A stretch of DNA of 62,868 nt, filler included, from Chrysochromulina tobinii (lineage: Eukaryota), in assembly GCA_001275005.1 (NCBI GenBank). It is 9 parts of 9 records of this genome, joined end to end, with 100 filler letters (N's around TTAATTAATTAA, not from the genome) between each part and the next. Parts side by side here need not be neighbours in the genome. Positions count along the whole stretch, not along the records: positions 1 to 14,380 come from JWZX01000460.1; 8 more parts are not named here. One strand, 5' to 3'. Below are positions 706 through 58,990 of this stretch, one piece after another. The number at the start of each line of letters is the position of its first letter. The first letter of the stretch is position 1. The notes under the pieces are model-generated. The model was not told the origin of the DNA, did no database searches, and saw only the letters and a program-made list of their open reading frames with translations. The translations under genes were made by a program, and so were the position numbers.

Positions 706-3245
706 ATGCTCTCCACCACCATATTTGCCCTCTCGATGACGGCTGGCGGCAGTGCATCGGAGCGAAAAGTCAACGCCTCCAGCAAGTCGCACCCGCACAT
801 CACCGGCTTGCGCTTCGTGCACGCCGACCCTGAGGGCACCCGCGGCCGCCGCCGACGCCTCTCGCCGACCGGCATAGGCATGCACGGCAATCTGCATACA
901 CTCGGCTACTTTTCTGCCGACGTGTGCGTGGGCACACCGCCGCACTCGTTCGACCTGATCGTCGACACGGGCTCGTCGCTCACGGCCATTCCGTGCAACG
1001 ACTGCTCCGCATGCGGCGAGCACACGCACTCAAACGGGCTGCGGCACAACCGCTTTGACCCCGGGATGTCGAGCACCAGCCAGGCGGTCCAGTGCAGCGA
1101 CCCGGCAGGCGCGTGCTCACACTGCGACGAGAGCCGCTCGTGCGTGTATTCGGTCTCATACACCGAGGGTTCCGCCATCCGCGGCCGCATGTACTACGAC
1201 AACTTTTTGTTCTCGGCGACGAGCGGCCTCAACCCCCGGCCTGTGAGAGCGGCGTTTGGATGCCAGAACTACGAGTCGGGGCTCTTCCGTAGCCAGGTCG
1301 CCGACGGCATCACGGGCTTCTCGCAGTCGGGAGGGTTCGGTGGTACCCTCTTCTCGTGGCTCGTGCGATCAGAGCAGGCGCCCAACGTCTTCTCGATTTG
1401 CCTGAGCGACGAGGTCGGCGCGATGGTACTCGGCGGAAGGGTACCCGATCCGCTCAAGCAGCGCGCACTGACGTGGATCCCCTTCGCAAGAACGGGCGCG
1501 TACGACATCACGGTCGAGGAGATGCGCATCGATGGCCACAGCCTCCCGGTCAACCGACAAGACTTCCGATCGACGATCGTGGACACGGGCACCACCTTCA
1601 TGTACCTACCGCCCTCTGCGTACACCCAGGTGCGCAACTACTTCCTAACCCAAGCCGAACCCTTACCCTTACCCTTACCCTAACCCTAATCCTGACCCTA
1701 ACCCTGACCCAGGTGCGCGACTACTTCCTCAGCCACTGCCCCTGGAGCGACGGCGTGAGCCCTACCGCGTGCGCGAGACGCGTGGCGCCCGGCGAGTATC
1801 CCGACGACTACTGCTACACGGCGAGCGGCGCCGAGGTAGCTCGGTTCAAGCCCTACTCCCTTCACTTTGCGGGCGGCGTGACGCTGGATATCGGGCCGCG
1901 CCAGTACATGTACGAGCTCCGCAGTGGCGTGTGGTGCATGGGCATCTTCAACAACGAGCACAACGGGCTCGTGATCGGCGCCGCCGTCATCCGAGATCAC
2001 GAGGTCGTCTTTGACGTAGAGACGCAGCGGCTCGCGTTCATCCCGTCGAGATGCCTCGAGCTTCAAAATGGCACGAGGTCGAGCGTGCTCGAGGGTGGGT
2101 TCGGCATCAACGGGTGCGGGTCCGCCCAGGAGATGCCGCCGCCGCCGCCCACTCCATCGCCGCCGCCGCCCAACTCCAGCCCGCCGTACCCGCCACCTTC
2201 CCCACAGCGGCCAAGCCCCCCACTCACACCTCCAGGGGTGGAGACGCCACTGCCGCCGCCCATCCCGCCGCCCCGTCACCGCCCGCCGCTGACCACGCCG
2301 CTGACCACGCCGCCGCCCATGCTGCCGCCGGGCGCCACCTTGTGCACCGAGGTCAACCGCGGCGCGCGCTGCGAGCTCGATTGCAACGGCATCGGTACCT
2401 TCGACCTGTCTGGCTTCCGCCAGAACTACACGGTGGTCGACGACGCCAACCAGCGGCACTACTCCTTCGAGCCATGCGGCACAGACACCAGCCAGCTGCG
2501 GAGCCTGTGCCCATCGTCCTGGGTACCCAATCCGGTAGCCGTGGAGTCGTGGTGCCCGGGAGCCGCCAGTAGCAGCCCGGGGTGCTGCGCGGCTCTTGGC
2601 GACTTGAATAGCGTCGTGTGCACCGCGCAGGGCCCGGCCGGCATCTCATGCACGTTCTCCAACGGCGACGGTGGCCGCGCCGTGCAGTTCGACTACGTGT
2701 GCACGGCGATCTCCGCGTCAAACTCCGCGGCAGCTCACGTCGTCAATCCGCTGGAGCTCACGCCATCATTGGCGATTGAGCACGTGCACGACTCGGGTCT
2801 GCACTACCAGGTGACCCTGAGCGGACCTTCCGGATGCGCGGCAACCTCCCGACGAGATCGGGAGTCTTGGAACCCTTTCTCCTCCGGGTCCTCCTGGACG
2901 GGTTACCTCGACTTGATCAGTAACAGCACCACGTGGGAAGAGGCGTTCCAAAAGATTGAGCACCAGCTGGAGCGCGACCTACCCGCAGGTGAGTGCCACT
3001 GATTACCACTGATGACCTGCCTTGCATGCAAGTGCTCACTGGAGCGCGACTTACCCGCAGGGGCGATTGCCGCGATCGCGATCTTGTCGCCGCTCGTCGC
3101 GTGCTGCTTCTGCCTCCTCATCTGCATGTTGCGCTCCAGACTCTTGCGGCAGCGGAAGGAGTTTGAGGAGCGGATGAACCTGGTGCAGACGGCGAACAAG
3201 ACACTGTCCAGCTTCAACGCCAACGACGAGGATGACGGCTTGTGA
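706..3245 (+). CDS. A1 aspartic protease, plasmepsin V/ASP5-like, with Pro-rich linker, Cys-rich MRH-like domain and C-terminal TM helix; exons 706-1629, 1713-2988, 3061-3245
   Basis: Two catalytic DTG motifs (IVDTGSS at 964, IVDTGTT at 1582), PCxxCxxCGxH segment, FGC, GITG, IGAAVIRDHEVVFD. Two GT-AG introns join ORFs 706+, 1356+ and 3012+ in frame. Hydrophobic AIAAIAILSPLVACCFCLLICML near the C-terminus. Confidence 0.88.
1630..1712 (+). other. 83-nt phase-0 intron filled with telomere-like CCCTAA/CCCTTA/CCCTGA repeats
   Basis: CAG|GTGCGC...CCCAG|GTGCGC. Removal restores YTQ-VRDYF and avoids the TAA at 1681. Confidence 0.9.
2989..3060 (+). other. 72-nt phase-1 intron with CCACTGAT-type repeats
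   Basis: GCAG|GTGAGT...CCCGCAG|G. Removal avoids the stop at 3000-3002 and joins the TM exon. Confidence 0.85.
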
Positions 3246-3834
3246 GGCTAGATCTGAGCTGCGTTGGTGTGCGTCGGTGACGGGCTTTACTTGAACGTCT
3301 GAACGGTGTCCGTTATAAGGACTCGCTCGCGCGGTCTCGACTCGGAGGTGTGTCATGGCATGTATGGCGGTGGGGTCTGCGTGCGGAGTCTCGTCCCGTG
3401 GCGACGGCTCGTCCACCTCGACGAGGGCCGGGCGGCCGCCGTCCGCCTGCCCGGGGGCCCCGCGGCGCCGCGCACCGCACCGTCGTCAGTACACCTCTGT
3501 CGGTCATGTGTCTCCGCTCACCTCACGTGATCTGACCCGTGGGGCCTGAAAGGCTTAAAGGCCTCTGTGCCGAGCAGATTTTTGCGCAACTTGCGGAAGA
3601 GCGCGTGTCGCACTGCGCGCACACGCAGGGCGCAGGCCCCACCGCGCGGCGCGGCGAACCGCACGGCGGGAGCGGCATCGACAATACACCAATCGACAAT
3701 ACACCAACACGCGCACCAACGACGGGATTACCGGGGGACTCCACGTCCTCCGTATGACGTGTTAGTCTGTTCGGAACGCAGGAGGCGGCGCTCCCAGCAC
3801 TACTACAGTCTCGAGGCTCGCCACTAAAAAGTCA

Positions 3835-9158: not shown

Positions 9159-12100
9159 TCAGGCATCGTGTCCTCGACTGGCGTTGAGGGCGCCAGGCAG
9201 CGTCGGAACCGTAGCACAGTCCAATGAATTGAACAAACCCTCCAGCTTGGCAAACGGCAGGCCGTTGAGCCGCGCTCGGCTCGGCTCGAGGAGCGCCGAG
9301 TAGTCCCGGCTCGCGCACGGATGCAGGCGCTTCCACCCGCCTCCTTGGGCTCGACGGAGCTCCGCATCAACGGCTTCGATGATCTCGGCGTCGCCGCCGC
9401 TCACGACGGCGCTTGTCCGGCCGCACACCGGCGCGCCGGTCGCCTCCGCTCTCGGTACATCGCTGTGCGCGGCCACGCCGACGAGGTTGAGCAGATCTGT
9501 GAGCACCGCCGCCTTGACGCGCAGGTCGAGCGCCGTATCGGTGGCGAGGGACGGGTCGAGGTTGACTTCGAACACGTGCGGCTGAAGCGCCGCGTCGAGC
9601 ATCACGTCGAAACCAAAGAGTTGGAAGCACCGCCCCCCAGTGGGAGGCACGTACGTCGCGACAGCCTGCCCCATCGTCGGCTCCGCCGCGAGGAGCGTCT
9701 TGATGAGCGCGTCCTCGACGGCGCGCCACGCGGCCTCGGCCCGCGCCGCGCCCACGTCGGCGGCGAGGCGCGTGTGGAACTCGTCGAGACCGAGCTTCAG
9801 CCCGGGGGGGACGGTGCTCGGCACGGCGCTTGGTACCTGGTCGGCGGCATGGGCGCCGCCGCCGACGACGCTGCCGACGACGCGTGCGCCGGCGCTCCCG
9901 GCGTGCTTGTTGATCGCATAGTTGGTCAGGTGCCTGTGTACGTTCGAGAGGTCGTCCAACGAGTACGGCGCCGCCGCGAGCCGTGCGAGCCCCTCTCGAT
10001 GCAAATAGAGGACCAATGGCCGCCAGCAGGTGACGAGCACGTACAGCCGAAGGTCGTTCTTGCGCCCATCAATGAGGTACGGCGGGTGGATGTAACGGCT
10101 CGCGATGCCACGCCGGCTGGTGACGGTTTCGGGCACGCCGGCTGAGCCCCAGTGCAGCGTGATGCCCTGCCCACGACACGCCGCGACGGGCTTGACGATC
10201 CACACTCCGCGCGGCTCTGCGGCCATCGCCCCCCGCAGCGGATCCGCCTCGGCTGGCAGCACGTAGCTCTGTGGCGCGAAGGCGAAGGCGTCCGTCCCAT
10301 ATTTGGAACGCATGCGATCGAGCAAAGCCCATAGCGCACTCTTGGTCGTCAGGCAGCTGGCAAGAGGGAACTTGTTGATGCACTGGTGCGGCTGGAGCGC
10401 GAGCAGCTGTGCGGGGCTCACCTGCCCCGCAATCAGTGGCACTCAGTGGCAGTCAGTGGCAGTCAGTGGCACTCAGTGGCACTCAGTGGCACTCAGTGGC
10501 ACTCAGTGGCAATCAGTGGCAATCAGTGGCAATCAGTGGCACTCAGATTTAATCAGTGTTAATCAGTGGCACTCAGTGGCACTCACCTGCCCCGCAATCC
10601 ACAGGAGAGAGCAGCCCACATCCAAGCTCATGGCGCGCTCGAAGCCGTGCTCGAGCAGGATGCACTGGAGGACGCTGGCAAAGTGCGGGTGCGTCGAGCT
10701 GCAATAGTAGCGCGGAGGAGAGGCAGCGAGGGGGGTAGCGAGGGAAGTAGCAAGGGGCTGCGCGGTCGCTCTTGCTGGCGCGGCCGGCCGGGGCTGCCAG
10801 GGGCGCTCCTGCCAGCTATCGGAGAGCCCTGGGAGCGTCCCAAATCGGACGTAGTGCGGCGGCGAGGGGTAGGAGATGGACGACGGCACGGGGAGCATGG
10901 GCGCAGGGGAGCATGGGCTATCACTTAGGGACCATAGAGGCGCGAGATCGTGCTCGAGATTGTGCGTGACGACTGTCGCCTCCCTCTGCTCAACACAACG
11001 CTCCATCTGCTCAACACAACGCTCCATATGCTCAACACAACGCTCCATCTGCTCGGGGCCGCCGCCGTGAGCGCGGAGCACGGCAGCACACGCCTCATGC
11101 CCCCAGCGTGTGGCATGCTCGGTGGCTGTCCTTTCCAGCGTGTCCGTGAGCGCCACCGCGGCCCGTGCGCCCAGGAGCATCCGTATACAGCCGAGTTGGC
11201 CGTAAAGCGCCGCACGCATGAGGGGCGTGTGGCCTTCACTGACCGACACGGCGTCCACCGACGCCGATGCAGCGAGTAGCGAGTGCACGCACGCCTCATG
11301 GCCACCTTGAGCGGCGAGGTGTAGCGCGCTGAACCCATTCGGTTTCGTCAAATTTGTCGACGCGCCGTGCGCACATAGCAGCTGCACGCACGCCGCGTGC
11401 CCGTGAAGGCCGGCCCAGAGCAGCGCAGTCCAGCCCGCCTCGTCGACCGTGTGCGCCGCCGCTCTCGCCTCAAGGAGCAGCTGGGCGCTCTCGGCATCAC
11501 CCCAGTACGCAGCGTAGGCGAGTGGGGAAATGCCATCCCAACGCGCCTGGTTTGGGTCCGCGAGCGCCCTGAGGAGCAGCCGCACGGTGCGCACGTGACC
11601 GTCGCCAGCGCGTGGCGTGCGATGGTGCGTGCGCTGCGCCGCGTACAGCAGCATCGTCGAGCCATCTGCCTCGACGATGTCGAGCTTGGAGCCATCGTCT
11701 GCATCGAGGCCCGCGCGCGCCGCAAGCAGGCGCTCGACGCATCCCGCATGCCCGCCGAGGCACGCGAGCTTGAGCGGCGTGAGCACGACCGCCCAGCCGT
11801 TGTGAAGGCCGAGCGTCGGCGACGCGCGAGCGTCGAGCAACAGGCCGACCGACTGCACGTCGTCCGACTCACAGGCGATCATGAGCGCGCTCCACTGCGC
11901 ACGGTTGGTCAGGTTGGCGTCTGCCCTGGCTCCGAGCAGCACGGCGAGGCAGCTGTGCTGGCTGCTCTTGGTAGCCAGCAGGACGGCATTCGCACCGTCG
12001 TGCTGGCGCTGCGCATCGAGCGCTGCGGCACCGTGCTCCAGCAGCTGACGCACGATGCTCGCGTGGCCCTGCTCCGCAGCGGCCATGCAAGCCGTCGTGC

Positions 12101-20856: not shown

Positions 20857-23800
20857 CTAGATGCGGAAGAAGCGCTTATCGGCCTCCTCCTCGAGGACGG
20901 CGGGCTGGGGCAGCGGCGGCAGGTCCAGGGGCAGCAAGGCGTACCGTGTGTACGGGTCGATGGCGTACGCAAACTGCTTCTTGTCCGCGGCGTCTGTGGG
21001 CGCCTTGAGCTCGGTCAGCCGGTTGACGCCGCTCAAGCGCTTCGTGTACGCGAACAGCGCCTCGCGCCGGTCGAGGAGCTTTTGGTACTCGGCGTCGGAG
21101 ATACGCGCGCCGTACCGGCGGAGCACCGAGTAGCCCTGCACCATGTCAGCACAGTCGAGTACGTGGAAGAAGCCGCGGTTGATGCCGAGGCCTTCGGGCC
21201 TGGAGCGACTCGACAGAGCCGAGCAGTGATCATCAGAAGTGATCAGTGGCAATCAGTGGTCATCAAGGGTCATCAGTGGTCATCAAGGGTCATCAGTGGT
21301 CATCAGTCACCAGAAGGGCTCCTGCAGCGCGTCGCCCACACGCGTCACGAGTACGCGAGAAGCGGGCGAGCCGCCAAGCGTGGCGCCGGGCACAAGGATC
21401 GCCGCGCGGTTGGACGATTTGCGTTCCGAGAAGTCGAAGATCTGGAGCTGATCGGGGACGAGTGGCTGCTGCGCGAGCGCAGGCACGAAAGCGCTGATGG
21501 CCTGGCGCGCATACGCCTCGAGCTTAGAGCGGTCGACGTTCTCGCGCGACGTCGGCTCGGGCACGCTGAGCGAACGCACTGCACCCGCGACCATGAGCGC
21601 CTCCAGATCCGAGGTCATCACGAAATAGTGTGTGGCGCAGTCGGCAAAGTTGCCGCTGCTGCGGTAGTACACGATGTTCTGAAGCACGCAGCCGTTCCGG
21701 GCGAGCTGTGCGAAGGTCTGTTGGTGGTACTGCTGCGACCAGGTCGATTCCGGGAGACGCATCTCCTCGACCGTCTTGTGGTTCTGCAGGTGCACCACGA
21801 TGCACGTCGCGCGCGCGAAGCGGGTCGAGAGCTGCGTGAGGCCGAGCTTCTCGAAGAGCTCGCAACGCGCACCCGTCGCGTCCACGAGCACGTCCGGAGG
21901 CTCACCCGGAGCACCGCCCTTGGGCGCCATCGCTCGTGCGCGACGCTCGTCCACACCGCCGCCAGAGCGCTTCTTCGAGGTGGCGCCGCTGGTAACCGAG
22001 CGCGCGCCAGTGCGCGAATTGCTCGCATCGCTGTGGAGCATGCCGAGCGGCGAACGCGGCGCTGGCGCGCTGCTCGAGTCGCTTTTTGTGTGCAACGCCA
22101 TCGCAACCGGCTTGCGCGGCGACGGTGGGCGCGGCGTGAAGAAGGAGGCAGAGAGGTAGCTCTGTAGCGAGCGCGGGTCTGCGACCTTGCAGTTGAAACG
22201 CACAGTCACCCCAAGGAGCACCGCGACCTTGAGCAGGGAGTGCTGCAGCTGCGAGGTCTGCACATGTCGAAAGTCGGCGCCGCTAAAGATAGACGGATCG
22301 ATGAACTTGATGCCCAGATCAATGAGATCCAGCTCGACCCATTCCCACAGATGGAGTACCTGCAGCCGGCCGAAGCGCTCGCGGCTCTCGAGCACCTCCA
22401 CGCGCAGACCGAGGAAAGCGAGCTCGATGGCGCAGCGCAGGCCGATCGGGCCGCCGCCGATGATGACCGCGCGTCGCCGCGCCGCCTCTCTCGGCAGCCG
22501 TTGACCTCGCGCGTCCATGTCGGCTGCCGAGTATTGCGCCCGCGCCGCGCGGCTGCTCAGCTGTGCGAGGAGCTGGCGTGAACGATGCGGGAGAAGCGGC
22601 ATCAGTGCCTCAGTTAGCAGCGGCAGCAGCGACGGCGTGTCGGCGGTGAGCACGCTGCTACCGCGCCGTCCTAGCACGTCGATGTGGAGCGCCGTCAGCA
22701 GCGCCGCGTGCGCATGAAGCACGTCGGCTGCCTCCTTAGCCGCTAGCAGCTCGCCGAAGGCCGCGGCGGCCGCTCGCTGCTCCTCCGTCATCTCGGCGGC
22801 CGTAAGGCGGGCGGGGTCAAAGCCCAAGCGCTGCGCGCCCGGCACACCCAGCCGTTGCGCACCCACCGGCAACGCTACCGCCGTGCCACGGGGCGTCCAA
22901 GCACGCGGCGACGACGCACGCGGGCTCGTCGAGGCTGGGGCCGCCGCCGCTGCCGCCGCCAGCGCGAGAGGCGCACGCGGCACCACCACTGGTGGCGTCG
23001 CGGGCTTGGCGGGCTTGGCGGGCGGCGGCGAACGGAGGAACAGCTTGAAGGGGGAGATGAGGAGCGAGGCAGCCGTCGGGCGTGTCATGTTAGGTGTACT
23101 GGCGTCGAGCTTTGGATCACTGCCGCCCAACTTTCTAGGCGAGGAGCTCCGAGGGTTCAGGGTCGGCCGAGCGCTGCCGGAACGTCCTTTTGTATTGCAT
23201 GCCTTGGTTGACGTTGTCGCTGTCGCTGCTGCAGTCGTCTCTGCCTCTGCCTCTGCCTCTGCCCCTGCCCCTGCCTCTGCCCCTGCCCCTGCCTCTGCCC
23301 CTTCCTCTGCCCCTGCCTCTTCCTCTGCCTCTTCTGCCGTCTTCGCAAGAGAGCCACACGTGTGGGCGGTCGGTGGCGGCGAGAGGCGTGCGCCCGTGAC
23401 ACTCCCCGTCGTCGACGAGGCGGCCATGAAGTCGGCGGACCGGAAGGAACAGCTCGAGGAGCAGCTGGATGAGGAGCAGCTGGATGAGGCGGTCGATGGC
23501 GCCGCCGGCGTTTGTGCCGGTGTCCAGAAGCTCCCTCCGCTGGTGTTGACGCTCCGGCTGTTGCCGAGGACGAGGGGGAAACCGACGGGGCTGCAGACAG
23601 GGCTCACCGGCGCTCGCTTCGCGTGCTTGCGCCCACAGCCGAAGAACAAGCAGAGCCCAAAGCAGCCAGCAGCAGCAGCCGGCGTGTCGCTCGCCTCGCC
23701 ACTGGTTGTCGGTGGCATCGGCGTGGGCGCTACCTGGATCCGGAAGGTTTGCTGCTGAGGCGAAAGCTCAGGTGACAGCATGCACGAGGTTGTGGGCGAC

Positions 23801-36782: not shown

Positions 36783-38335
36783 TGAAGCCGAAGGCGGCGG
36801 CGAGCGTCAAGCCCGCCAGGGCAGCAAGGGCGAGGGCAGCGGCCGAGATGATGAGCGAGCTGAAGCCGAAGGCGGCGGCGAGCGTCGAGCCCGTCAGGGC
36901 GATCAGCTGCACGCGCGCCGAGCAGCGTGATGCGGCCTGTGCTGCGGAGGCGAAGGCGTGAGCAGCGGCCGAGGTGATGAGCGAGCTGAAGCCGAGGGCG
37001 GCGGCGAGCATCAAGCCCGTCAGGGCGATCAGCTGCACGCGCGCCTAGGAGCGCGATGCGGCCTGTGCTGCGGAGCCGAGGGCCAGGGCAGCGGCCGAGA
37101 TGATGAGCGAGCTGAAGCCGAAGGTGGCGGCGAGCGTCGAGCCCGTCAGGGCTACGTCAGGGCGATCAGCTACAAGCGTGCCGAGCGGCGCGATGCGGCC
37201 TGTGCTGCGCGAGCCGAGGGCGAGGGCAGCGGCCGAGATGATGAGCGAGCTGAAGCCGAGGGCGGCGGCGAGCGTCAAGCCCGTCAGGGCGATCAGCTGC
37301 ACGCGCGCCTAGGAGCGCGATGCGGCCTGTGCTGCGCGAGCCGAGGGCCAGGGCAGCGTCCGAGATGATGAACGAGCTGAAGCTGCAGGCGGCGGTGAGC
37401 GTCCAGCCCGTCAGGGCGATCAGCTGCACGCGTGCCGAGCGGCGCGATGCGGCCTGTGCTGCGCGAGCCGAGGGCCAGGGCAGCGGCCGAGATGATGAGC
37501 GAGCTGAAGCTGCAGGCGGCGGTGAGCGTCAAGCCCGTCAGGGCGATCAGCTGCACGCGTGCCGAGCGGCGCGATGCGGCCTGTGCTGCGCGAGCCGAGG
37601 GCGAGGGCAGCGGCCGAGATGATGAGCGAGCTGAAGCCGAAGGTGGCGGCGAGCGTCGAGCCCGTCAGGGCGATCAGCTGCACGCGTGCCGAGCAGCGCG
37701 ATGCGGCCTGTGCTGCGGAGGCGAGGGTGAGATCAGCGGCTGAGATGATGAGCGAGCTGAAGCAGAAGGCGGCGGCGAGCGTCAAGCCCGTCAGGGCGAT
37801 CAGCTGCACGCGTGCCGAGCAGCGTGATGCGGCCTGTGCCGCCCGAGCCTAGGGCGAGGGCTACGGCCACGATGAAAAGTGATCTGAAGCCGCATGTGTT
37901 GGCGAGCGTCACGCCCGTCAGGGCGATCCGTTGCGCATTCGAGCATGGCAGCCTGTGCTGCCCGAGGCGCACTGCGGCCGACATGATGAGCGAGCTGAGG
38001 CTGCAGGCTGCGGCGAGCGTCCAGCCCGTCAGGGCGATGAGCTGCGTTCGGAGCGGCGCGAGGCGGCCTGTGCTGCGAGGCCGAGGGCGAGGGCAGCGGC
38101 CGAGATGATGAGCGAGCTGAAGCCGAAGGCGGCGGCGAGCGTCGAGCCCTTCAGGGCGATCAGCTGCACGCGCGCCGAGCAGCGTGATGCGGCCTGTGCT
38201 GCGCGAGCTGAGGGCGAACGCAGCGGCAGAGATGACGAGTGAGATGAAGCTGCAGGCGGCGGCGAGCGTCACGCCCGTCACACAGGGCGATGAGCTGCAC
38301 GCGCGCCGAGCAGCGCGAGGAGGCCTGTGTAGTTG
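36783..38335. repeat. tandem array of about 12-13 copies of a 126-127-bp GC-rich unit
   Basis: The ATGAGCGAGCTGAAG anchor recurs at 36851, 36977, 37103, 37241, 37368, 37495, 37622, 37748, ~37875, 37986, 38108 and ~38235. Confidence 0.92.
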
Positions 38336-43786: not shown

Positions 43787-46480
43787 CGTGCGAGGGCGAC
43801 GCGACGCAAACTTGAAATGACCGCCGGGCGCCCGGGCCGGGCGCTTTCATATGCCCAAACTCCTTTCAGAGCCAATGGTTATAAGTCGACACCCAAGACA
43901 CCGGACCGGCGTACTTACGGATGCGGTTACCACTAGCTCGGGGACCCCTGGACCCCCTTCTCACAGTCATCCTCGATCAGCCGCCTTCACACCGCCTGCA
44001 TGCTCACGCCTGCGTGCGGCTTCGTCTTTCGAGGCGAAGGTGCGGTTGCCTGTGTGCTTGGCCCGTCCGGGCAAGCTGCAGGCTCAAGCGGTGCTGATCG
44101 TAGCCGAAAATGCCGCCACGGCCGAGGTGCTTGCATTGGNNNNNNNNNNNNNNNNNNNNNNNNNNNNNNNNNNNNNNNNNNNNTTAATTAATTAANNNNN
44201 NNNNNNNNNNNNNNNNNNNNNNNNNNNNNNNNNNNNNNNAGTTAGAAGAACTTCCGGTGGTCGAGAGTGATTGAACGCGGCGCGATGATACTAGCTTCTC
44301 CTCAGAGACACTCCGTGTCACTATCCAGGGAAGGGGGGAGAGGGGGATTTCGTAGGGAGGTGCGAGATCGATCCTTTTATGTGAGCTCGTCCTGTTTGTC
44401 TTCTTTATGAAGTTTAAGGTTGTATAGTTCACCATCAACGGCGCGCTCGTCGAGGGCTGCCCGGCGACCAGGTCGACCGGCGCGTCGCACGAGAGCCCGA
44501 GGTCCTTGGCCATCTCATCGACGAGGAAGCCGCCGTGCGCCATGATCTTGGTGGGCTGCCCGCGGACGTCCAAGGCGCGCACGCACAGCTCAAAGCCGGC
44601 CGTCATGAGGTTGACGGACCCAGTCGAGTGCCGCCCGCCGTGAGGGCATAGGCGGCCAGCACGGCCCGGTCCGCCTCGCTCGGCCGGAGCGCGTCGCGCA
44701 CGACGCGCGCGACCACGCCGTCGCGCACGACGCCGTCGACGCGGCGCAGCAGCGCGACCACGCCGCCGAGCGCCTCGCCCGCGAGCTCCCACATGGCCAT
44801 CGGCCGAGCGGCGAGCTCGGCCTTGCCGGCGGTGGCGAGGATCTCGCCAAGGCCGAGCTGCACAGCCACCTCGGCCAGACGCTGCCGGTGGCGCCGCGCC
44901 ACCGACCTGGCCTTGGCGCGCGCGCCCTCGTCGCGGCACTCGACGGCGAGACGCTCCATCAGGTCGATGAGCTCAATCTCCTTGTCGAGCCGCGCGCGCG
45001 CCGCGGCGGCTGCGCCATCGCTCGCGAGGACGCGAGCCCGGCGGCGGCCACAAGCTCGCCCTCCTCCACCTCCTCCGCCTCCTCCGCCTCCTCCTCCACC
45101 TCCTCCTCCTCGCTCTCCGACCCCTCCGAATCAAGGTCGAGCGCCACCGCCAAGCGCCGCCCCAGCACCTCGTCGATCGGCGGCTGGTGCCGCGCGTTCT
45201 TCGCGGCCGCGGTCGACCTGCGCTCGGCGAGCGCCGACGACGACGTCTTCCTCGTCGACGTGCTCCGCCCGCCCGCGCTCATCCGGCGCATCTCGGTCTC
45301 GCCCGAGTCGCTGCGCGAGGGCACCGCCTAGCACCGCCGCGCAGCAAGAGGTGGCGGCGCAGCCCGAGGCGCGCCTGCTACGCGCCTGCTCCTGGCCTTC
45401 CACAGGCTGCGCCGCGGCAGCGCCTACAGCCGCCGGCTGGCCCATCGCAAGCTGGCGCGTGGCACGCCCGTGCTCTGCCTCGAAGCGGTCGACTACGCGC
45501 GCGCGCCGCCCCCCTTTGCGCTGTGATCAGCACAGCGTGCATGTGCGCGTACTGTCGGCTCGGAGCCACGCTGTGTGTGGAGGCGTACACTGCAGAGGTG
45601 TACCGAAAGGTGTCCGCGTACTGTGCTGCGGCGGCGTCCATGTACTGGGAGACGTCGCACGTCGCGGTGAGTTTTTTGGTATAGCGTGTGCATGTGCATA
45701 TTGGAGGTGTCGGCATGCCCGAGGTGACCGCGGTGCCGGCGGATGCTGGATCGTTATACTGCTACTGGATCGGAGGTGTACTGGATTGGTGTGCATGTCC
45801 ACGGTGCAGAGGTTGTTCTGCTGCTGTGACACGGGGGAGTAGAGCACAGGCTTTGACACCTCTTCGGTAGACGGTACGCCTACACCCGTCCTCACAAGCG
45901 TCAAGTACACATCGTGTTCCCAATGCGTGTTCCTTCACATTTCACAGACGTTATATTTATCATCAAATCACTCCTCGTGATCCCATTCAGCTCGAAATCC
46001 CAGTGTCGTGGAAAATGCGCTATTGATATCGTATCCATTTCTGGACAGTGATCGGGCGCTTGGTCGACGGCCAAACCTACTCGGAAACTATGAGTGCACG
46101 TTGAAACCCACACACGAGCCTTTAATGATCCTGACCAGGGGAAACAGCCCCCGATGCGTGACGACGGGGAGCGTATCTCGGAACGTAAATCTCGGAGGCG
46201 AGCGGGTGGATGCGTGGCGAGCGATACACTCCCTCGGAGCCGTCCACGTGACCGAGAAGTCTTGGAGGGGCGTGCCGTCGGCGGCGACCGGCACGATCTG
46301 AAAGGGAGCGTATTACATTCTCGTCGTCGACGGCGGAGCTGTCCATGGTTGCGACGCCTGAGCGCAGACGTCGCCGTCCTCTACGCCCGCACCTCGTCCG
46401 CTTTCGACGTCGCCGTCACGGACCACCGGAGAGGAAAGGCGATCGCGAACAAGCGACCCCCCGCGGCCCAAAATACTAAA

Positions 46481-46642
46481 TAGCCCGGCCCGGACGGGAT
46501 TTGAACCCGCGCCAATTGCGAGAGAGAGAGAGTGAATTAGGTGGCATGAGGCGAGGGTGAAGGAGGTGGCGTTTAGAAAAGATAGAAAATAATTTGTCCA
46601 AAATAGCCCGGACGGGATTTGAACCCGCGCCCCTTGCGAGAA
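46481..46642 (-). repeat. two reiterated 3' halves of tRNA-Leu (46604-46642 exact, 46481-46523 degenerate) with a shared ~75-nt trailer
   Basis: 46604-46642 is identical to 47877-47915 (39 nt). The trailer GCGAGAGAGAG..TGAATTAGGTGGCA at 46518-46546 matches 47800-47824. Confidence 0.9.
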
Positions 46643-47876: not shown

Positions 47877-47959
47877 TAGCCCGGACGGGATTTGAACCCG
47901 CGCCCCTTGCGAGAACGGAGCCTTAATCCGTCGCCTTAGACCAACTCGGCCACCGGACC
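47877..47959 (-). tRNA. tRNA-Leu(AAG)
   Basis: GGTCCGG TGGCCGAGTTGGTCTAAGGC, anticodon arm ACGGA-TTAAGGC-TCCGT, long variable arm, GGGTTCAAATCCC, CCGGGCT-A, then a TTTT Pol III terminator. Confidence 0.95.
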
Positions 47960-57789: not shown

Positions 57790-58990
57790 ATCTCGAGTGC
57801 ACGCTCGATCGCTGCGGCTGCTGCGGCGGGTGAGAGCGCCATCACCCACATGCCAGGCAGCATCAACTCGAACGCCTCGAGATGCATGGTGAGAGCGGCC
57901 GCGAGCGACGGGCCGAACATGCCAATCCACATGTTCTGAAAACTAAGAAGATCGGCACGTCCTCACCGTAGATACGCTCCAAAAGGGCGGCAGCAGCTGA
58001 TCCATATCTCCCCACTCAGATGCAGTCGGTGGCAATCAGTGGCACTCAGTGGACAAAAAGAAGCACAGCCTGTGATCACAGGTAATCACAGGTAATCATA
58101 TGCAATCACAGGCAATCACAGGCAATCACAGGCAAGCACAGGCAGGCACAGGCAAGCACCTGCTTGGACACAAAGAGCAGGCAGGACAAGAGCCAGAGCA
58201 CTCGCCAGAAGGCACGCATCCCCAACATCTCGAGCACCGACTTGCCCGCGCTCCTCGCGTTAGCTCTTGGGCGAAGCGCAGCCATGTCGCTGAGACGCGG
58301 AGCCGGCACCGGCGCCGCCGCCCTTGCTGCCGCCGCTGGCGGCGGCGCTGCTGCGCTCTTCGAAAACCTCGTAATTGGAGATCTCATCCTGATCGTCCTC
58401 GACCTCAATTTCGCTGGCCGGCGTCAGCGGCGGTGGCTGCGCGGCCGCCGTCTTGGGCGCACCCGCGAGCCGCTGGGAGCACCCGCGAGCACGCTCCAAT
58501 GTCTGTCGGAGTGACAAAGCTCAGCGAGCAGCGGGCAGGTGACTGGGCCGGGCGAGGCTGAGCCCTTGGCAGCCTCGCGCTCGTCCTCATCGAAAAGGAC
58601 GAGGACGGTATCGTACAGGCACGCAACGGAGACGGCGAGCGCGGCGAGCACCGCCAGCCACGCGAAGGTCCGACCAGTACGTACCGCCGACTCAATGTCC
58701 GTCTTACGGAAAGTGTCGGCGGGCACATCGGCGAGGGCGCCCGCGAGGTTCAAGACGCCTTACTGGACGCTGAAGGCGATGCCGCGCGTCGTGGGCGTCG
58801 TCAGCTTCTTGAGTGCCACCGTGTAGATGTGGCCGCCGCCGCAGCCAGAGCAGCGCGAAGACCATGATGCTGCGCTCCGTGCGAAGGCGAGCAGGCCGCG
58901 GCTGACAGCAGCGACCGAGAGGGCGGCGATGGCGGTGTTGAGTACGCCCCACGAGCATCGCGCCGAGCTTGCCAAAGACTACCATGAGCC
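57790..58990 (-). pseudogene. MFS transporter pseudogene with a satellite-filled intron (~58015-58159)
   Basis: TM-rich fragments (TTPTTRGIAFSVQ*GVLNLAGALAD; AFWRVLWLLSCLLFVSKQ|WGDMDQLLPP; MWIGMFGPSLAAALT) with an in-frame TAA at 58760 and several frameshifts. Confidence 0.6.

Follow-up and report, generated by a model that had tools for sequence, protein, structure and literature searches.

The source of the sequence from which new introns are made is a long-standing open question, and in Daphnia that source is mostly unknown. An aspartic protease gene in the 62.9-kb stretch of Chrysochromulina tobinii DNA analysed here (the window) raises this question again: one of its introns has a legible source, a telomere repeat, its splice sites are explained by a duplicated junction, and its removal can be read from RNA contigs. 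Was this intron gained in one step by an intron-free exon, and what then supplied its filler?

The intron at 1630–1712 and its alleles

An initial annotation claimed a 23-nt direct repeat with one mismatch at 1624–1646 and 1707–1729, and both the coordinates and the identity proved exact (22/23, with A at 1636 against G at 1719). The two copies have no further match beyond either end, and the chance expectation for such a repeat in the window is about 1e-4 (over 256 spacings). The unambiguously duplicated core is shorter than 23 nt: the repeat ends in ACCC on the left and CCT on the right, which are also telomere sequence. Copy 1 (1624–1646, + strand) holds 6 exonic bases, the GT donor and 15 further intronic bases, including a derived A at 1636. 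Copy 2 (1707–1729, +) carries the CAG acceptor and extends 17 bases into exon 2, and its first 4 bases are in telomere register. Between them lies a 60-nt filler (1647–1706, +), a degenerate CCCTAA array whose C-rich strand is the mRNA strand; its alignment, 67 bases long, shows 8 substitutions and 1 gap. The window contains eight CCCTAACCCT-like matches, six of them within this filler, against a chance mean of 1.3, and the filler is the sole telomere-like array in the window. The telomeric register that had been claimed for it holds at both junctions, over 4 nt at the 3' junction (the priming side in the mechanism below) and 3 nt at the 5' junction. Five matches to CTRAY, candidate branch points, are located 6–30 nt upstream of the 3' splice site.

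Within the identical bases the only GT-AG cut is 1629|1713, which gives an intron of 83 nt (1630–1712, +). Its first 17 nt copy the next exon, its bulk (60 of 83 nt) is telomere-like filler and not duplicated exon, and its ends are not complementary, that is, there are no inverted ends. The length is not a multiple of three, and the unspliced frame stops at 1681. With this intron and a second one (2989–3060) taken out, an open frame of 794 aa starts at 706 and encodes an A1 (pepsin-like) aspartic protease (Pfam TAXi_N, Asp and TAXi_C). Exon 1 (706–1629, +; 308 codons, the last being CAG) carries TAXi_N and Asp and is covered by RNA contigs, exon 2 (1713–2988, +) carries TAXi_C, and exon 3 (3061–3246, +) continues the open spliced frame to the stop codon. 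Single-exon genes nearby group at 90% with C. tobinii proteins, which places the DNA in a freshwater haptophyte of that group.

RNA contigs of runs X15, X16, X17 and X19 join 1633 to 1717 with zero letters between, splicing being read off contig coordinates because 1644–1716 was masked in the alignment. All four read G at 1719, and copy 2 is therefore the exon, in agreement with the proposal that copy 1 gives the donor and copy 2 the acceptor plus exon. The spliced state was found in four of five RNA runs, and the fifth, X21, was without the locus. The four runs have four study codes, three of them perhaps belonging to one campaign, and X19 differs by about 1%, which indicates another strain. 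DNA contigs of X1 and X13, either of which may be the source of the window, retain 73 letters of the insert. In the RNA check suggested in the initial annotation, the 83 nt were absent from the RNA contigs and present in DNA. This makes 1630–1712 a genuine intron, which is spliced out and, as had been claimed, does not alter the protein; its removal restores the 794-aa frame. Homologues read R-D at this point, matching copy 2; the intronic copy 1 therefore holds a later change. Another X13 sequence, which matches 1791–1966, represents a paralogous protease from the same DNA run; between its matches at 1827 and 1893 it has 82 additional letters, probably an intron of its own.

Allelic versions came from a cluster of unspliced calls with 77 members, of which 40 were read and 15 were listed. 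Among the 15 listed of 77, the calls reading into the intron were the window's own, P0321 and P0323, four calls began at exon 2, and no insert-free call crossed the site. The P0321 intron has one unit more than that of the window. The P0323 call reads through a stop-free version of 96 nt, in which the units are mixed differently and copy 1 again shows the D-to-N change. Its filler measures 73 nt (12 hexamers plus 1), exactly the length for unbroken register from the CCT end of copy 1 to the ACCC start of copy 2, and the window allele is one base off that length. The alleles thus have a single origin, followed by slippage and fast drift. Misassembly, a concern raised at the outset, was ruled out by the independent alleles P0321 and P0323, which carry the intron, together with the run contigs.

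Telomere-like arrays in marine contigs

A metagenome scan for telomere arrays directly behind a CAG|GTG donor gave 105 loci from 2 of 64 parts, with about 3,900 stretches in all. After 29 of 109 matches were dropped (array running off the contig end, or telomeric sequence upstream), 63 GC-rich and 17 GC-poor ones remained. The 79 non-redundant marine loci, chosen for holding an array, contain 272 arrays in 159 kb. Junction duplications were clearly above chance: duplications of at least 15 nt occurred in 20 of 63 donor-anchored GC-rich arrays versus 2 of 3,906 mismatched pairs. Similarly, among arrays in the flanks, outside the pattern selection, they were present in 45 of 195 versus 78 of 37,068 mismatched pairs. 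Duplication lengths in the marine set were 12–41 nt. One of the 17 GC-poor loci had a long duplication, itself a tandem unit.

The initial annotation had also asked for a test of strand bias. We used 157 unselected pure arrays, 104 of them with usable flanks, and a codon model trained on the window. The bias in these related marine arrays was strong: the coding strand was the C-rich one in 79 of 104 arrays and the G-rich one in 7, with 18 undecided. Composite arrays ran from G-rich to C-rich in 55 of 55 cases, and no C-then-G order was seen. They seldom had long duplications (5 of 47 versus 71 of 225 arrays), and possibly form a second class derived from blunt breaks or were shaped by splicing. 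At abutting junctions, 2 or more bases were in register in 16 of 27 cases on the 3' side and 18 of 38 on the 5' side, as compared with 14% and 16% in simulations; 64 of 91 measured 3' junctions and 53 of 91 measured 5' junctions were not abutting. Telomere purity was higher in the 33 arrays with perfect long duplications (median 0.924) than in the 101 arrays lacking them (median 0.875; p=4e-5), and 11 of those 33 were under 90% telomere-like.

One marine locus, L094, contains an Arl1-type gene (102–1668, +) with telomere-like arrays in all six of its predicted complete GT-AG introns, whose removal would join the exons into an open frame. Two of these introns contain copies of the adjoining exon, suggesting repeated insertion at the same junction. 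Taken as sequence, the marine contigs suggest that a break-repair route to introns may work at genome scale. A protein search with L091 and two Atlas searches found families and no close named species for the marine loci; their assignment to haptophytes is a guess from GC content and intron style. Two intron patterns had no match in a viral collection, another gave 8 unrelated tracts there, and a protease alignment found no relative in it. Prokaryote genomes gave 9 matches, all due to chance.

Source of the filler

We propose that the intron arose by a one-step gain in an intron-free exon, in which a staggered break led to a duplication of about 23 bases and telomere repeats were inserted, telomerase being the likely source. 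A one-step gain of this kind, whichever polymerase was involved, appears quite probable; for the complete scheme with telomerase we see roughly even chances. Beside the observed anatomy, splicing and allele drift, the scheme includes an intron-free ancestor, a break and an enzyme, which we infer. A staggered break across CAG|GT would have opened the exon, and the downstream broken end, with its lower strand ending in GGGT, would have primed TTAGGG addition. The new repeat tail would then have joined the upstream end via the shared CCT, and fill-in of the overhang would have produced copy 1, repeats and copy 2 in this order. Copy 1 would supply the donor and copy 2 the acceptor, and the C-rich repeats would add pyrimidines and CTAAC/CTGAC branch-like motifs; with splice sites duplicated and such motifs in the filler, the mRNA would be left unchanged. 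The 17-nt copy of the next exon at the intron start is hard to derive from an old intron and supports a gain.

A staggered break healed by telomerase-like or templated repeat addition was already envisaged in the initial annotation. The duplication and the register at both junctions speak for it, and telomerase itself enters only by inference. The case for telomerase in mammals is built mainly on register at the break (PMC2246262, PMC7215372). The G-then-C order of all 55 composites is what 3'-end addition at both broken ends predicts, and it is also expected from splicing selection; likewise, a similar register excess at both ends is also predicted by microhomology-guided copying. A telomerase that makes TTAGGG, the repeat of haptophytes and presumably also of C. 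tobinii, has been shown in the haptophyte Pavlova (PMC3622300). An InterPro table lists no TERT for C. parva and likewise none for Chlamydomonas, and this table therefore has false negatives (PMC12480563 supplement). If exon patching by telomere repeats is real, the repeat brings branch-point and splice motifs and the staggered breaks bring duplicated junctions. If it also holds for the marine repeat blocks, it is a common and little-noticed route to new introns. A tentative extension, which we think somewhat more doubtful than not, is that telomerase patching of exon breaks continues to produce introns on a large scale among haptophytes and other marine protists, and that most introns of some lineages were built or rebuilt by it.

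The filler may instead have been copied, in a one-step gain with the same duplication and no telomerase, from an existing telomere-like array or intron as DNA or RNA. Templated end joining, strand invasion or a retroelement reverse transcriptase would be the routes, and one process would account for telomeric and 10-mer introns alike. We regard this as the main rival, less likely than telomerase and well within reason. Two other introns of the window bear on it. The second intron of the protease gene (2989–3060, +; 72 nt) has a filler of 10-mer repeats and a 23-nt junction copy (22 nt upstream plus 1). It is skipped in RNA contigs of X15 and X19 and absent from the unspliced calls P0323, P0320 and P0330, and is likely an intron gain that is still segregating; junction-copy introns thus segregate in the species of the window. 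A candidate intron on the other strand (10422–10586, −), a GT-AG stretch of 165 nt, has 10-mer repeats and an 18-nt junction copy, and its removal opens a reading frame. The footprint of 18–23 nt thus accompanies non-telomeric filler in two introns, one of them polymorphic. Because one of them lies in the same gene, the footprint is not telomerase-specific, and the duplication step, as these neighbours with non-telomeric filler show, is a general one. Two additional 10-mer tracts were noted in the window: one at about 21200–21310 (−) looks like an intron and has little junction copy, and one at about 58020–58160 is inside a possibly broken gene.

Copying from an existing array also agrees with the register excess at both junctions, and with the fact that one third of the young-looking arrays are already degenerate. 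Donors would be plentiful, given 272 arrays in 159 kb of marine loci, although these were selected for arrays. Retroelement target duplications have a length range that overlaps the 12–41 nt of the marine set. However, the younger-looking arrays are the purer ones, and the alleles of the intron drift so fast that degeneracy needs no degenerate donor. Besides, C-then-G composites were absent (0 of 55), and no donor or element was identified in the 62.9-kb window.

Earlier state of the site and known routes of intron gain

A one-step gain implies that the site was empty before. A sister cluster with 92% identity reads through it, once on a 9,463-nt contig; most of its contigs are transcript-sized and may stem from DNA or from RNA. 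The groups placed nearest by a quick tree also read through, their contigs measuring 8–32 kb, and several lineages between the P0396 clade and the window gene do so on contigs of 7–32 kb. At exactly this site, P0396 and P0393, members of another clade (45% identity), have an ordinary phase-0 intron; P0350 and P0391 have an intron 2 nt further on, both placed from frame-shifted tails. Homologues seem to be interrupted at several different positions close by. The sister species is likely, on present sequences, to be without an intron at 1630–1712. In the search for an intron-free version in orthologues, proposed with the initial annotation, the sister cluster and the nearest groups came up as candidates, and no intron-free allele of the species was seen among the 15 listed of 77 cluster members; an old intron in orthologues, which would argue against a gain, was seen as an ordinary intron only in the distant P0396 and P0393, while nearer groups read through. 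The F-L versus F-R difference to the sister species was set aside as a means of dating the insertion, as these bases are also in telomere register. Sister-cluster proteins P0121, P0123, P0132 and P0134 have a polymorphic 15-residue in-frame insert (window positions about 2360–2385), which looks like tandem copies of the adjoining exon in another frame.

The intron of P0396 and P0393 raises the question of whether an older intron at this site was overwritten by repeated telomere-repeat insertions with junction-spanning duplications, in which case the position is not new. Arrays do occur in introns that may be old (6 of 6 complete introns in L094), and telomere register together with the CAG consensus could account for the 6 upstream bases in the repeat. 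On the other hand, a shared intron would need many losses, since the intervening lineages read through. With an AG|GT proto-splice site at this position and apparent interruptions of homologues at several places nearby, parallel gain is plausible and, as far as the sequences go, probably more economical than many losses. No remnant of an old intron is seen either, the first 17 nt being exon sequence. We therefore consider overwriting improbable.

Still less probable is that plain tandem duplication of the exon made the splice sites and the repeats then grew by slippage from a telomere-like seed at the joint. The bare joint would read CCT-ACCC, one base from a telomere unit, slippage is visible among the alleles, and tandem duplication over AGGT is a known route of intron gain (PMC3443670). 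However, the duplication of 23 nt would cause a frameshift and, until the array had grown, would not be long enough for splicing, and neither the G-then-C composites nor the purer young arrays are explained in this way. As in tandem genomic duplication, both splice sites of the window intron derive from a duplicated AG|GT, but there the whole intron is duplicated exon, whereas here 60 of 83 nt are foreign repeats (PMC3443670).

Least probable is an origin as a non-autonomous DNA transposon, the intron being one copy of an Introner. A Chrysochromulina MAG is reported to contain Introners with target duplications, but the reported duplications, like inverted ends an optional mark of the family, are 3–9 bp (4 in Chrysochromulina) as compared with 23 here (PMC9860276), and the window intron has no inverted ends and a simple-repeat filler, with marine duplications varying over 12–41 nt. 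In both cases introns were created recently and repeatedly within one genus, with a duplicated target (4-bp in the MAG), whereas the window and marine arrays have a longer, variable duplication and a simple-repeat body. The Introner survey, as its methods are given, demanded that similarity reach the two ends of the intron and left similarity due to microsatellites out of account (PMC9860276). By these criteria it would likely miss introns that begin with exon copies.

The proposed gain by a patched staggered break resembles two known phenomena. The first is the short interstitial telomeres of primates, rodents and horse, internal TTAGGG arrays with register at the break and sometimes a direct duplication from a staggered break, for which telomerase was proposed (PMC2246262, PMC7215372). 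Duplications are found at 4.5–16% of these mammalian loci, and at about a third in the arrays related to the window intron. Of the human interstitial telomeres in these reports, none is exonic and none is described as making an intron; the window insert splits a coding exon and is spliced (PMC2246262, PMC7215372). The second is the new introns of Daphnia pulex, in which the end of the adjacent exon is repeated at the far end of a GT-AG intron and the protein is unchanged (PMC4202315). The Daphnia repeats are 4–12 bp and the filler is AT-rich and of mostly unknown source, telomeres being unmentioned in that account. The Daphnia gains are backed by polymorphism (PMC4202315), which in the window gene was seen for 2989–3060 and, among the 15 listed of 77 members, not for 1630–1712.

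Within haptophytes, the intron-rich genome of Calcidiscus leptoporus has many internal TTAGGG tracts (PMC13518057), and the text describing them contains no link to introns, splice sites or duplications. In the haptophyte genome literature more generally, the passages on internal TTAGGG tracts or simple repeats do not tie them to introns. A literature search that covered few subscription journals found no paper on telomere-repeat introns with junction duplications. The initial annotation had called the combination unusual: this does not apply to its frequency, since some contigs of marine eukaryotes show it very commonly. In its features the window intron combines a mammalian-type interstitial telomere with target duplication and a Daphnia-type intron from a staggered break, a union that we found in no paper. 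The window comes from a cultured group with segregating alleles, including presence and absence of the neighbouring intron, and both break-repair gain and the role of telomerase are thus directly testable.

Other repeats of the window were also noted. A tRNA gene (47877–47959, −; Rfam RF00005) has partial copies with shared flanks near 46480–46640, and at 36827–38329 a 127-nt unit is repeated in tandem about 12 times.
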